Shown in pieces: positions 35,401 to 50,400 of a DNA stretch of 64,000 nucleotides. The stretch's first letter is position 1; each line of letters opens with the position of its first letter. This stretch comes from Escherichia coli (lineage in GTDB: Bacteria > Pseudomonadota > Gammaproteobacteria > Enterobacterales > Enterobacteriaceae): the NCBI RefSeq assembly GCF_029227855.1, contig NZ_CP074357.1; one strand, given 5' to 3'. The position numbers were made by a program.

Positions 35401-38400
35401 TCAGGGGTTGACGGCAGAAATAGACTGGAATTACACTTCTTGGAGTCGGCGTTGCCGGAAAATTCTGATTGGATTAGTTGTTCGGGGTGCGAAAACAGTC
35501 GTAGTTCGGGGAAAAAACCGAATTTTGACCCAAAACCGCGAAAAACTCGAAATGACAGTTCCTATCAGTTTTCATAATGAATTAAAACAAAAAAATTAGG
35601 CTGCAAAGATAGGGAAAATGTGTCAATTTGCGTAAGTGATAATTAGTCAATTAAGATAAATGCTACTTTTGTAATCAAAGCAAAATGATATGAGCAAGAT
35701 TTTTGGAATCGTAAATATAACCACCGATAGTTTTTCCGATGGAGGACTTTATTTAGATACAGATAAGGCAATTGAGCATGCTCTGCATTTGGTTGAAGAT
35801 GGAGCAGATGTGATTGATTTGGGAGCCGCTTCCAGTAATCCTGATACAACTGAAGTGGGCGTTGTGGAAGAAATCAAAAGACTCAAACCTGTCATTAAGG
35901 CTTTAAAAGAAAAAGGCATTTCTATTTCTGTTGATACATTTAAACCTGAGGTTCAGAGTTTTTGCATAGAACAAAAGGTTGATTTTATTAATGATATTCA
36001 AGGTTTTCCTTATCCTGAGATTTATTCAGGCTTGGCAAAGTCAGATTGCAAACTTGTGTTGATGCACTCCGTTCAGCGAATTGGTGCAGCTACTAAAGTT
36101 GAAACGAATCCGGAAGAGGTTTTTACTTCCATGATGGAATTTTTTAAAGAAAGAATTGCTGCTTTAGTTGAGGCTGGTGTAAAGCGTGAACGAATTATTC
36201 TTGATCCGGGTATGGGCTTCTTTTTAGGCTCTAATCCAGAAACATCTATTCTTGTTTTGAAGCGTTTCCCTGAAATTCAAGAAGCTTTTAATTTGCAAGT
36301 AATGATTGCAGTGTCACGGAAATCATTCTTAGGTAAAATAACTGGAACCGATGTGAAATCTCGTTTAGCACCAACTCTTGCAGCAGAAATGTATGCATAC
36401 AAAAAAGGTGCAGATTATCTCCGCACCCATGATGTTAAGTCTTTATCAGATGCCTTGAAAATATCCAAAGCCCTAGGTTAGTTTTATTTTTTTAGCTTTC
36501 TAAATGAATATGCTATACTTGCTCTGAAGTTGTGTTGGCGTACTTGACTTAGGTCTGGATCTTTCGAACTGTTACTAAGAGGGTAATCATAGCCAAACAT
36601 AAACTGGAAATGTCCTAATTCTAAACCTGTTCCAATACCTACACTATGGTGATGCTGCCAACTTACTGATTTAGTGTATGATGGTGTTTTTGAGGTGCTC
36701 CAGTGGCTTCTGTTTCTATCAGCTGTCCCTCCTGTTCAGCTACTGACGGGGTGGTGCGTAACGGCAAAAGCACCGCCGGACATCAGCGCTATCTCTGCTC
36801 TCACTGCCGTAAAACATGGCAACTGCAGTTCACTTACACCGCTTCTCAACCCGGTACGCACCAGAAAATCATTGATATGGCCATGAATGGCGTTGGATGC
36901 CGGGCAACCGCCCGCATTATGGGCGTTGGCCTCAACACGATTTTCCGCCATTTAAAAAACTCAGGCCGCAGTCGGTAACCTCGCGCATACAGCCGGGCAG
37001 TGACGTCATCGTCTGCGCGGAAATGGACGAACAGTGGGGATACGTCGGGGCTAAATCGCGCCAGCGCTGGCTGTTTTACGCGTATGACAGGCTCCGGAAG
37101 ACGGTTGTTGCGCACGTATTCGGTGAACGCACTATGGCGACGCTGGGGCGTCTTATGAGCCTGCTGTCACCCTTTGACGTGGTGATATGGATGACGGATG
37201 GCTGGCCGCTGTATGAATCCCGCCTGAAGGGAAAGCTGCACGTAATCAGCAAGCGATATACGCAGCGAATTGAGCGGCATAACCTGAATCTGAGGCAGCA
37301 CCTGGCACGGCTGGGACGGAAGTCGCTGTCGTTCTCAAAATCGGTGGAGCTGCATGACAAAGTCATCGGGCATTATCTGAACATAAAACACTATCAATAA
37401 GTTGGAGTCATTACCGGAGAATTGTATCATTAACAGTCTAGTTCTAACGACTACCACTTTTAAGTATGTATTGAGCCAGTTTTATATTCAGGCACACCAT
37501 ATTGCACTCTAGCTCTTTCATCATTCTTGAAGAACTCTTAATTAAGTATTCTTCAAGTGGGCCAGCATATGCCCCTGATGTCACGATCGTTAGTTGCGTA
37601 AGAGGATGAGTCAAACTCTCAATGCCCTTCAGGATGTCATTCTGGACAGCAGCAATATAAACAGGCGAAGCCGCAATCAAATATTCATCATTCGGGCTGG
37701 ACTGCATTAACTGGCTTATAGTTGCGCAACGGTTATGCTTACCTAGTGATTTTGTGATGGCTTTCCACCAGAGATCATGCCTGAATGGTACTTGATGAAA
37801 TGTCGCCTCGTAAGAGGGCACCCGATCTCGACTATTTAAAAACCCCATCCCGGCAGAGATTATCCACAACTCCAGATTTCTGGTTGAGTTTAAAATTTCC
37901 TTTGCCGTAGACCAGTGATTACCTGAATACAAGGACAATGCCGGTACCGCCTGATTACTTCTGGCGTCGTCTACAATGTTACTCCAGGCATATGCTGCGT
38001 CGTCCGGGGTTTGTTTTGGATCTATGTCCAATGTCGGCCAGACGTGGCCCTGATGATTCTTGCCCTTTGTACAGGAAGTGATTAAGTGTACTGAGCGTTC
38101 AGAGAACATTATCTTCCTTACATACCCATAGAACAGCTTTCTAAGAACGGTGGGCTCGCCTGAAAATTACAAATCAGCCCCTTTCACGGCATCATTTTGA
38201 TTCTTCGCGTCTGCCCCCAGTAAGATGACCGGTTTTCTGCATGACAGTGTTATTCCTAACAAACGCAACACAAAACCACGCCAGCCAGAGCAAATTTTTT
38301 CATTTGCTGCGTAAAGCCTATTGTTTTCTCTTTTAAGCTTCGCCCACTCGTTACAGAGGGTAACATCATCAAGCGCTGTTATATGCTTCGCCTCACCTTC

Positions 38401-47400: not shown

Positions 47401-50400
47401 ACGATTGATTGGTCAAGCTGGAAAACTTATGCCGCCATGTTGATCTTGGGAGCATTTCTCTAAAATCTTGAACCTTTTTTCACTCATTACAAGCCATGAC
47501 CTAGTGCGTAGATCATACGATCTTTAAACCTTATGTCATTGATTTATAAGTACATATAACAAAGATTATGTTAAATACTGTATGTATGTACAGCATCAAC
47601 AGTTGCCCCCCTCATATTGAGGTAATTGCTACATTCATACCACTATTCTTCTTATAGTATCGACATCCTGAATTATTGCACCCTACTGCTTTGTCTTTAG
47701 CTGTTCCGAATTAAAATTCATTGCTCAATTTGGATCACATGACGATCAGCGTATTCCTTTGCTTTATCAAAGTTAAGTTTTTAAAACATAAGATATGTAA
47801 TGACAAATTCTCAATCTGATTTTCCTTTGAACGATCAAAATTTTCAGGCAGATTTGCTGAAAATCAAAAAGGTTTTCGCCGACCTTATAACGCAGGCATC
47901 AGATGGTAAGATACCCATAAGGTCTTCTCATGTACACGGCTTACACCATTTCGAGGAGCTCTACATCCGGGCAAGAGCAGGCATGTGTTCGGTCCTGGGA
48001 TATCCGGTCATGGTTGTTTCAACTATCTCAGTTAAAGAGCCCGGCACAGGCATTTTTAGAGCGCTTCTTGCAGAATTGAAATGTATTGCAGATGAACAAA
48101 ATTACATTTTGAAAATTGAAAATGTACTGCCTCCCCTATTCCGCAAATACCTTATTCAAGAAGGTTTTGTTTTCCCAGGTGAACCTTGGATGTGTGGTTC
48201 CGGCTATTGGTTTAAGAACCCACAAGTACTTCATGAAAATATTGAGTTATTATCTGTTTAAGTCGATCTAACAATTTCACTGGAGCTAACATGTCCCCGG
48301 AATTGGTATCAGACATTGCAAGAGTGGCGCATGAAAAGCTACTTTCAATTTTAACGGAGTGCGGCATAGAGAAGACGGCAGGCACTTGCCTTTTTGCAAG
48401 CTATCTTGTGTGTTATTTAGCAAAAACTAAAGGTCTAGATGCTGTTGTCCGTGGGGGTAACGGTGCAGATGATGGCGGTATATTTATAGAGTGTGGTGGC
48501 TTTGGCCATTATTGGTGTGAGTTGAATTTCGAAGAAGTGCAATATTATATTGACATCACTTCCGAACAGTTTGGGTTTCATCCATACATAGTGAAACTCG
48601 CCAACGATATAACAGGATGGCCTCGATATATTCCTGGTGATCAGGAAACGGTCGATAGTCATTTAGAACAATTATTACGCGACGGCTATACAGAATAGGC
48701 TGCGTATACCCTATCGCAGCCTTTCAGGCTCTTAACCCTTGTGACCTGTTAACGGAACCACTCAGGATGACGCTGCCGATCAACTTTGATAACCTGCGAA
48801 TTAAATTCAACGACATCCGCTGGAGTAAGCATTAATTCATCAGGATTTACAATAAATGGTCTTAAAACCACTTCGCCACCGTCTTCTTTTGCACCGTAGA
48901 TATTAATAAGAAAGTGCAGTCGTTGATTTCCTTCAGCATTGCGTTGCCATTCTCTAAAAGTCAAAGTTTGTTTAATATAGTTTGTTAAAAGAAATGCGAA
49001 TTCAGATTCTTCCGTTTGTGAGATACCGATTTTGTTAGACATTTTTTTTAGTATCTTTCCGAGCATGGACACACAGGCATCTAGACTTAACGATGTTGAA
49101 ATTTTGGTCGTATTAAAATCCTCCTGCGAAAGTGAAATCATCCATGTATTATCTTTATGATAGTCGGTAATATAAATAAAATGAGATGTAAAAGGCGTTG
49201 AGTGATTGAACTCTCCTAAGTTCCATCCATACTGACTCACTGTATTTGAGCTAAGTTCTTTGTCGGTAATGTTCATAATTCATACCTTTCGATAAAGTCT
49301 GTAATGATAATTAGCTATCTCAAAGGACCAGAACAACTCTTGAAATAACCACACTCGAAGAATTTATCATATTGAACACCCCTACCTAATAACCTTGCCG
49401 ACTTAATAAATCACAATAGCCCTCCCCTGACATTTTAAAATGCTACTTGAATTTTTGATAGCTTATGGTTGTTTTATGTTCTTTGTGATACGCATATGTC
49501 ATCTTCTCTTTCCAGTACCAATCTTGTAGATCCTGCAAGTCTAGCCCATTTTTCTCACGTATGCTTTCGTGTAATTCGCTAAGCGCGAGTTTATCATTAG
49601 GTTTATAAATGGCTAATTTTTCTTCAAATAAATCCAGCCAACGTTTCCCCATCTTACGACGCAAAACAAACACCATCGTGATAAATGTAATGAAATGCAC
49701 AGCAATTAGTTCCAACTTATGCGATTGCTGACCAGATAAAATTACTATTGTAACAACAGGGATGGCCGTATATAAAGCAATCAAAGCGACCATAAGTTGG
49801 TATGGTTTTTCCCGTATTACCATGTTCATGGGTAAACCAGAGGACGCTACTGCTTGCCAAAATCTTAAAGGGGAGCCCGCAGAATTCGGAAAAAATCGTA
49901 CGCTAAGGTTTTCCGGGCATCCGTAAGGGCCGAAACTTCCCGTCTTCCAGTCTGCGGCTCTGCCGCCAGACGTAATCGCCGGTTAGGTTGATGTGCTCCC
50001 AGCCCAGCGGCGACAGGAATTGCAGCAGCTCGCCGTCCACCGGCTTGCCGGCCTCGACCAACCCCTGGGTGGCGCGTTCCAGGTACACCGTGTTCCACAG
50101 CACGATAGCCGCCGTCACCAGGTTGAGGCCGCTGGCCCGGTAGCGCTGCTGCTCGAAGCTCCGATCCCTGATTTCCCCAAGGCGGTTGAAGAACACCGCC
50201 CTGGCCAGCGAGTTGCGCGCCTCACCTTTGTTCAGGCCGGCATGCACGCGGCGGCGCAGTTCAACACTTTGCAGCCAGTCCAGGATGAACAGCGTGCGCT
50301 CGATCCGGCCCAGCTCGCGCAGGGCCACGGCCAGTCCGTTCTGGCGCGGGTAGCTGCCGAGCTTGCGCAGCATCAGCGAGGCGGTGACGGTGCCCTGCTT

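Follow-up and report, generated by a model that had tools for sequence, protein, structure and literature searches.

A 12.5-kb stretch of conserved IncHI backbone with Dcm, DUF1173 and exported nuclease genes lies between resistance insertions in Escherichia coli

We analysed a window of 64,000 nucleotides from Escherichia coli (assembly GCF_029227855.1, contig NZ_CP074357.1), in which a 12.5-kb block of largely uncharacterised genes (37416-49869) lies between the insertion sequence IS1 and an end of Tn1721. An earlier note on this window had likened the block to a plasmid leading-region or defence and anti-defence island. Our analysis revealed instead that the block is ordinary, highly conserved core backbone of IncHI2 (and IncHI1) plasmids and no newly acquired insert. 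Both of its junctions are inherited by hundreds of plasmids, its GC content is backbone-like, and multidrug resistance (MDR) insertions on both sides sever it from the remaining backbone. Taken as a whole, we consider it likely that the block is an IncHI core-backbone fragment of about six transcription units held between resistance insertions, and that its conserved core, which encodes a Dcm-type methyltransferase, a DUF1173 protein and an exported nuclease, can be read as a DNA-protection and establishment toolkit. The open reading frames (ORFs) of the block are referred to as g01 to g18 in order of position.

When the whole block was searched as a unit, as the earlier note had advised, 1,254 plasmid records were matched. 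Of these, at least 615 cover 80% or more of the block, for the most part with approximately 100% identity. Among the plasmid matches, 843 are at least 99% identical and 1,067 are predicted to be conjugative. The host bacteria are mainly Escherichia, Salmonella and Enterobacter, and the four records inspected by MOB-suite typing were all IncHI2A / MOBH / MPF_F. Over 25-50 kb one plasmid is identical to the window, and it carries sul3 and IS1 on the left of the block and tetA/tetR, strAB, IS26 and floR on the right. The IncHI2 plasmid pJXP9 has been described as having an 'MDR region between umuC and dcm' (PMC9599605, PMC11575406), and the architecture of the window agrees with this arrangement. 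A phage origin was rejected: no nucleotide match to the block was found among 50,697 phage records, and at the protein level only DUF4942 relatives of 24-27% identity and one DUF1173 relative were seen.

The IncHI2 reference plasmid R478 (NC_005211) contains, at approximately 147-167 kb, the same genes in the same order, with identities of 97-100% for g03-g13, 86% for g14 and 92-97% for g16-g18. Positions 39137-47465 of the window are present in R478 in one piece, with 98.9% identity for the core, and this piece is located between the pco copper operon and an ars/SulP insertion that follows g14. Past this insertion, R478 continues with the last three genes of the block and then with a 3.3-kb gene (1111 aa), which precedes g18 and g17 on their strand; in the window this gene would fall beyond the Tn1721 end and has been cut away by it. 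R478 differs from the window in that it lacks g15 and the LexA box described below, and in that a Tn7-like sil/pco unit at GTCCT displaces g01 and g02. For the Tn7-like sil/pco unit in R478-type plasmids, a 5-bp duplication with the sequence GTCCT has been published (PMC4855149). In the window, GTCCT is found at 39137-39141, and the homology with R478 begins at 39137. Since the left breakpoint of R478 coincides with the GTCCT duplication, the window shows the uninterrupted arrangement, and its GTCCT is the site that the Tn7-like sil/pco unit occupies in R478-type IncHI2 plasmids, here without the insertion. The block is already known as IncHI backbone sequence, while for the majority of its genes no function has been assigned; of the finding that the earlier note had named as speaking against its proposal, namely ordinary backbone with assigned functions, only the first half was obtained.

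Both boundaries could be read directly. The IS1 element (36648-37415, 768 bp), which lies outside the block at its left edge and is labelled IS1B in the annotation of identical plasmids, is flanked by 9-bp sequences that differ from each other (CTACACTAT and GGAGAATTG), so that there is no target duplication; this junction is common to at least 188 plasmid records. At the right edge, also outside the block, a 38-bp terminal inverted repeat of the Tn1721/Tn21 type (GGGGAGCCCGCAGAATTCGG...) occupies 49870-49907. Its junction is common to at least 616 plasmid records, and tetA/tetR come after it in identical plasmids. Both edges are as the earlier note had described them, as is the number of about 18 genes: we found 18 plausible ORFs with a coding density of 85%, 15 of which are present in the RefSeq annotation of identical plasmids. 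In agreement with the same note, profile searches of the block matched no family associated with resistance, transposition, replication or transfer.

The block has a GC content of 42.8%, compared with 60.2% for the right flank and 51% for the left side overall. The statement that the block is more AT-rich than its flanks is therefore right for these two comparisons, but it does not hold for the sul3-bearing segment immediately left of IS1 (33500-36647), which is AT-rich like the backbone block (40.5% GC). Since this segment has such a low GC content, low GC by itself cannot tell backbone from cargo in the window. The composition of the block agrees with that of the Tra1 region of R478, an undisputed part of the IncHI2 backbone (44-45% GC), and IncH core genes have been reported to average approximately 46% GC, with higher values for acquired genes (PMC5390554). 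The AT-richness is the own signature of the IncH backbone and no mark of foreign origin, and the flanks of the block are GC-rich acquired modules.

A core of approximately 8 kb has one and the same gene order in IncHI2 and IncHI1 plasmids and in IncH-like plasmids that are more distant. This core is composed of the DUF4942 gene and a coiled-coil gene, the dcm gene with genes for a 55-aa acidic protein and DUF1173, and the gene for an exported SNase-family nuclease with a partner of approximately 300 aa. The nuclease and its partner are divergent from the Dcm-small ORF-DUF1173 genes, and these are convergent with the coiled-coil and DUF4942 genes; past DUF4942 the conserved order continues with a 126-aa gene, a DUF6884 gene and then an H-NS gene. 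When the neighbourhoods of increasingly distant homologues were compared, the core order held at 54-82% identity in five further lineages, and it was found in a Photorhabdus plasmid, two ter-bearing metagenomic IncH-like contigs, an E. coli chromosomal record, another ter-bearing contig and an IncHI1 plasmid. The IncHI1 copy (pRHB17-C02_2) has the same module adjoining an H-NS gene, with approximately 81% identity for DUF1173. The fastest-evolving core proteins are the coiled-coil protein g04 and g10 (36-52% identity). By gene spacing, the block comprises about six transcription units, namely g02-g01, g03-g04, g08-g07-g06-g05, g09 to g14, the LexA box with g15-g16, and g18-g17, indicating that it is a stretch of backbone and not a single system. 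In the E. coli chromosomal record (L013, OU349849.1), the entire module lies within 5.46 Mb of sequence and probably belongs to an integrated IncH-like element.

The central unit of the core begins with g08 (43060-44487, minus strand), which encodes a 475-aa DNA cytosine-5 methyltransferase of the Dcm / M.EcoRII type (Pfam DNA_methylase, 3.8e-75). It matches NCBIfam PRK10458 with 846 bits against a cutoff of 710, and its best PADLOC model is that of an orphan methyltransferase (684 bits). Compared with the solved enterobacterial Dcm structure 3me5, g08 is 64.7% identical over 439 residues without gaps, and the variable region is 63% identical; CCWGG can reasonably be inferred as its target sequence. 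Downstream of g08 on the same strand are g07 (42832-42999), which encodes a 55-aa protein with a net charge of -9 and no family match, and g06 (41490-42809), which encodes the 439-aa DUF1173 protein; the gaps between the three genes are 60 bp and 22 bp. The position of g07 is kept in all IncH-like relatives at 40-61% identity. The operon ends with g05 (41274-41477, minus strand), a 67-aa ORF after a 12-bp gap, which is 70% identical in Photorhabdus; in two relatives (L005 and L006) a g16-like gene of 144 aa takes its place. A terminator-like hairpin with a 9-bp stem and six GC pairs (41264-41288) separates this unit from the convergent g04. Strong acidity is a trait of DNA-mimic anti-restriction proteins. 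Both g07 (-9 over 55 aa) and g16 (48291-48698; -12 over 135 aa) are conserved and unusually acidic, and neither has homology to such proteins.

The DUF1173 protein contains a zinc motif, an OB-like domain and a C-terminal restriction-endonuclease-like domain. In an alignment of 37 family members, the zinc motif (C53, C55, H86 and C90) and K351 are invariant, acidic residues are present at positions 335 and 370 in all, and 89% of the members have D365 and E380. The DUF1173 family was placed in the PD-(D/E)XK superfamily in 2010, without the canonical signature (PMC3045609), and the residue conservation observed here extends this assignment. Foldseek comparison of the DUF1173 model with the PDB gave nothing significant. 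Members of the family were found in 3,315 plasmid records, and of these records 73% are conjugative. In a Pantoea plasmid, DUF1173 heads a leading region of the order ArdA-SSB-DUF905-ParB-PsiB-PsiA, and in an IncH-like plasmid of Klebsiella, PsiA is 2 kb from DUF1173. The gene is also found without a nearby methylase in elements of Klebsiella, Pseudomonas, Pantoea and Massilia, and in Photorhabdus tasmaniensis the Dcm gene is cut to 145 aa (L004, 9137-9574) next to an intact DUF1173 and an otherwise intact module. In many large plasmids of K. pneumoniae (records H180-H185), DUF1173 is annotated as two pieces, which suggests repeated or inherited pseudogenisation.

On the opposite side of g08, g09 (44702-45217, plus strand) encodes a 171-aa exported nuclease of the SNase family (Pfam SNase, 3.8e-24; 85.6 bits against a cutoff of 21). 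When it was aligned with staphylococcal thermonuclease, the catalytic and calcium-binding residues (DGDT, R, D-x-P-E and YGR) were retained, and the N-terminus contains a hydrophobic signal-like segment (MFFLTKLLLPIMIVVFPVASWG). The two proteins are alike in their SNase fold, catalytic residues and N-terminal export-type segment, while g09 differs in that it is translationally coupled to the lineage-restricted 298-aa g10. The nuc/parB-type nucleases of conjugative plasmids, such as RP4 ParB, offer a further comparison for the exported g09. The g10 gene (45220-46116, plus strand) starts after a gap of 2 bp, and its product has a conserved CPxC motif and two more cysteines. It had no family or structure match in Pfam, PADLOC, NCBIfam, PHROGs or the PDB, and its family is tiny (20 representatives at E<=1e-3 among 1.84 billion clusters). 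In the IncH relatives, a g10 homologue of 23-52% identity accompanies the SNase gene. Of the gene contents listed in the earlier note, the methylase and DUF4942 were recovered by Pfam and NCBIfam matches, the secreted nuclease corresponds to g09 as judged from its SNase domain and signal-like N-terminus, the many tiny membrane proteins correspond to five small ORFs with transmembrane (TM)-like segments, and the LexA box is present as a perfect sequence core at 47578-47593. The exception is the 'KfrA-like' gene, since g04 has no KfrA_N match and is a generic coiled coil.

DUF1173 heads a leading region in Pantoea, PsiA is nearby in Klebsiella, nearly three quarters of the plasmid records with DUF1173 are conjugative, and orphan methyltransferases are reported to be a major class of leading-region genes (PMC11541004). 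Based on these observations, we read the core as a toolkit for the protection and establishment of plasmid DNA, rather than for phage defence; by analogy with these elements, an establishment or anti-restriction role is plausible. The block has been cut off from the remaining IncHI2 backbone by IS1 with sul3 on the left and the Tn1721 remnant on the right. According to the toolkit reading, Dcm would methylate CCWGG on both plasmid and host DNA, with the possible results that a transferred plasmid resists EcoRII-type restriction and that a host with methylated CCWGG resists post-segregational killing by EcoRII-type systems. DUF1173 may act on DNA during establishment, the exported nuclease may work in the periplasm or outside the cell in the manner of the nuc/parB-type nucleases of other conjugative plasmids, and g15-g16 would be induced by the SOS response.

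Here, we need to consider several points that weigh against this reading of the core. We infer the CCWGG specificity of g08 from its 65% identity to Dcm, and the conserved IncH gene order may reflect general collinearity of the backbone rather than functional linkage. ArdA, KlcA/ArdB, PsiB, SSB and Acr families were all missing from the block in Pfam, NCBIfam and PHROGs searches. Neither did we find a long hairpin of the Frpo/ssi type, as the Rfam scan gave none and the intergenic folds were short palindromes or unremarkable. In R478, the block is approximately 24 kb and about 21 ORFs away from the gap upstream of mobI, where the origin of transfer (oriT) is probably located by analogy with other MOBH elements, and the mating-pair-formation genes and umuDC lie between them. 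The Dcm and DUF1173 genes are oriented away from this gap, and early-expressed leading-region methylases have been reported in the orientation opposite to that seen here (PMC11541004). In addition, the papers on the evolution of pJXP9 (PMC9599605, PMC11575406) give no gene-level data for the block, and the IncHI2 literature searched for gene-level phenotypes shows only landmark uses of dcm.

Several of these points also bear on the proposal that the block is a leading-region anti-defence island of IncHI2, which would reach the recipient early and have its genes expressed from the single-stranded form. There is some likeness to the leading-region islands described by Samuel et al. in 2024 (PMC11541004), as the block has an orphan methylase, the DUF1173 family sits in a textbook leading region in Pantoea, PsiA, H-NS and umuDC are found near the module in relatives, and umu operons often border such islands (PMC11541004). 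The block differs from these islands in its distance from the probable oriT, the direction of Dcm and DUF1173, and the lack of canonical anti-defence genes and of a Frpo-like structure, and we hold this proposal to be unlikely. The resemblance to a leading-region or anti-defence island seen in the earlier note is right as far as the orphan Dcm and the Pantoea DUF1173 are concerned, but the block has none of the known anti-defence families searched for and, in R478, probably does not adjoin oriT. As for an undescribed system, which the same note had thought more likely here than anywhere else in the window, PADLOC models detected no complete defence system in the block, only the orphan-type Dcm and an isolated DpdC-like domain; most of the genes do have no assigned function and the core has an establishment or anti-restriction flavour, but they belong to ordinary backbone. 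It is quite unlikely that the 8-kb IncH module works as one system for plasmid establishment or competition between elements, in which DUF1173 would be an active DNA cutter or binder gated by Dcm methylation and the acidic peptide.

Two further explanations concern the partnership between Dcm and DUF1173. In one, DUF1173 would be the functional counterpart of Vsr and would nick T:G mismatches that arise from deaminated Dcm 5-methylcytosines, as in the chromosomal dcm-vsr pair of E. coli and Shigella. g08 is similar to the methylase of that pair, as described above, and the DUF1173 gene is located closely downstream of it. However, the block has g07 and DUF1173 where vsr would be expected, and the likeness of DUF1173 to Vsr is confined to a remote fold; no Pfam match to the Vsr family (PF03852) was found in the block, and DUF1173 is three times the size of Vsr with additional zinc and OB-like domains. 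In the other, Dcm, the 55-aa protein and DUF1173 would form an undescribed restriction-modification-like system, in which Dcm would mark self DNA and DUF1173 would cut unmethylated DNA, with the small protein as a controller or inhibitor. The tight spacing of the three genes on one strand would fit this, as would the fact that the trio is kept together not only in IncHI2 and IncHI1 but also in three to four further lineages, and the PD-(D/E)XK-like C-terminal domain of DUF1173 with its conserved E335, K351, D365, D370 and E380. Against this, the methylase fits best to a PADLOC model of the orphan class, and the canonical (D/E)XK lysine is replaced (E-V-F), in a family that was described without the signature (PMC3045609). 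Some observations apply to both explanations. A cognate endonuclease that always co-occurs with Dcm was not seen, as DUF1173 is present without a methylase in four contexts and intact beside the truncated Dcm of Photorhabdus; if DUF1173 were a true restriction enzyme, this combination would kill the cell, save where the host itself methylated the same sites. These lone and truncated contexts argue against a restriction enzyme and weaken a Vsr-like repair role, so that we regard the Vsr-like role as very unlikely and the restriction-modification-like system as highly improbable. Finally, g01 could mark a function in 7-deazaguanine (Dpd-type) DNA modification on the plasmid, since it matches the DpdC model PDLC02818 (4e-59), six other DpdC models and Pfam DUF6884, and DpdC acts on preQ0-modified DNA independently of DpdA and DpdB (PMC10164549). 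In this case, neither the transglycosylase DpdA nor the ATPase DpdB is matched within the block, the match of g01 spans only 233 of the 319 profile positions (3-233), and the homologues of g01 are all approximately 221 aa and located on IncH-like contigs of 210-250 kb, with none in dpd clusters. We judge this function exceedingly improbable.

The identity of the block as ordinary backbone takes it off the list of candidate novel islands, and leaves a deeply conserved 8-kb IncH core in which the orphan Dcm, DUF1173 and the exported nuclease are found together with their partners. IncHI2 plasmids have a major part in carrying resistance genes, among them mcr-1, CTX-M and oqxAB. If it is true that the core helps the plasmid to survive on arrival in a new host, it would offer a target for measures against their spread.

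The left end of the block contains g01 (37444-38109, minus strand), which encodes the 221-aa DUF6884 / DpdC-like protein (Pfam DUF6884, 5e-7) discussed above. Sequence and profile searches revealed no relative of g01 among the solved structures of the PDB. A gap of 57 bp separates it from g02 (38167-38547), a 126-aa protein with no family match in Pfam, PADLOC, NCBIfam or PHROGs, which is probably co-transcribed with g01 and occurs together with it in the relatives L003 and L006. In L006 (JGI Ga0209281_1001183, 9915-11018), identity to the window is 100% for the g01 homologue and 96% for the g02 homologue, compared with only 35-62% for the neighbouring core genes, which looks like a recent recombination patch swapped between diverged IncH lineages. 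Between g02 and the divergent g03 lies an intergenic region of 642 bp (38548-39189), which contains short perfect or near-perfect palindromes at 38815-38845, 38910-38937 and 39083-39101. As single-stranded DNA, this region folds better than shuffled sequences (z = -4.4 and -2.4), and the palindromes are responsible for the better fold. The three palindromes may be operator sites for a regulator.

The g03 gene (39190-40008, plus strand) encodes a 272-aa DUF4942 protein (Pfam DUF4942, 2.7e-26; phrog_38825, 3.8e-100). A methyltransferase function was rejected, as g03 has no (D/N/S)PP(Y/F/W/H) and no G-x-G-x-G motif, and the 'putative methylase' labels on its phage relatives look like inherited annotation. 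The AF2 model of g03 is poor (pLDDT 61), and the DUF4942 profile had no match among solved structures. All homologues with at least 54% identity are located within the same module, and a profile scan of the genome collection gave only close Enterobacterales relatives and no distant contexts. In the IncHI1 plasmid pRHB17-C02_2 (L029, 11815-12627), the DUF4942 gene seems to be split into ORFs of 151 aa and 62 aa, beside an intact coiled-coil partner. The Rfam scan gave only a sub-threshold Hammerhead_HH9 candidate at the start of g03 (39203-39267, minus strand; 22 bits against a gathering score of 52, E 0.12), which was judged to be a chance match. The g03 gene overlaps by 4 bp with the translationally coupled g04 (40005-41210, plus strand), which encodes a 401-aa acidic coiled-coil protein. 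The matches of g04 are to coiled-coil or SMC-arm regions and all far under the cutoffs, with PADLOC giving only the coiled-coil arms of JetC and LmuB. A lone C-terminal AGGGTGKS (residues 385-392) accounts for the 'ATP/GTP-binding' label; with only this motif and generic coiled-coil matches, a role as an NTPase was rejected. Identification as KfrA was likewise rejected, with no KfrA_N match in Pfam, PADLOC or NCBIfam. The g04 gene accompanies DUF4942 in every relative, yet its product is only 36-44% identical.

Downstream of the nuclease operon, g11-g14 (46164-47463, plus strand) are ORFs of 135, 84, 113 and 65 aa with TM-like segments and 30-41% GC, which form an IncHI2-specific variable slot and are absent from distant relatives. 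Other relatives have different genes in this slot; in the chromosomal record L013 (17071-18766), for instance, it is occupied by a SMODS/S_4TM gene pair in which the SMODS match is faint, and this place may be a variable hotspot. The LexA-box 16-mer at 47578-47593 (TACTGTATGTATGTACAGCA with flanks; core CTGTATGTATGTACAG), a perfect CTGT-N8-ACAG sequence, lies 207 bp upstream of g15 and is confined to the identical lineage, as it is not found beside diverged homologues of g15. It overlaps a predicted minus-strand promoter (47512-47599, TGTACA-16-CATAAT) that would read antisense into g14. The g15 and g16 genes (47800-48698, plus strand; 153 aa and 135 aa) are separated by 29 bp and form a probable two-gene unit. 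Neither had family or structure matches in the profile searches and among solved structures. Homologues of g15 with approximately 44% identity are present in more than 1000 Klebsiella plasmids, and a g16 homologue comes after DUF1173 in L005 and L006. At the right end, g17 (175 aa) and g18 (128 aa, two TM-like segments) occupy 48749-49829 on the minus strand; they had no family matches, including in PADLOC and PHROGs, and are 96-97% identical in R478.

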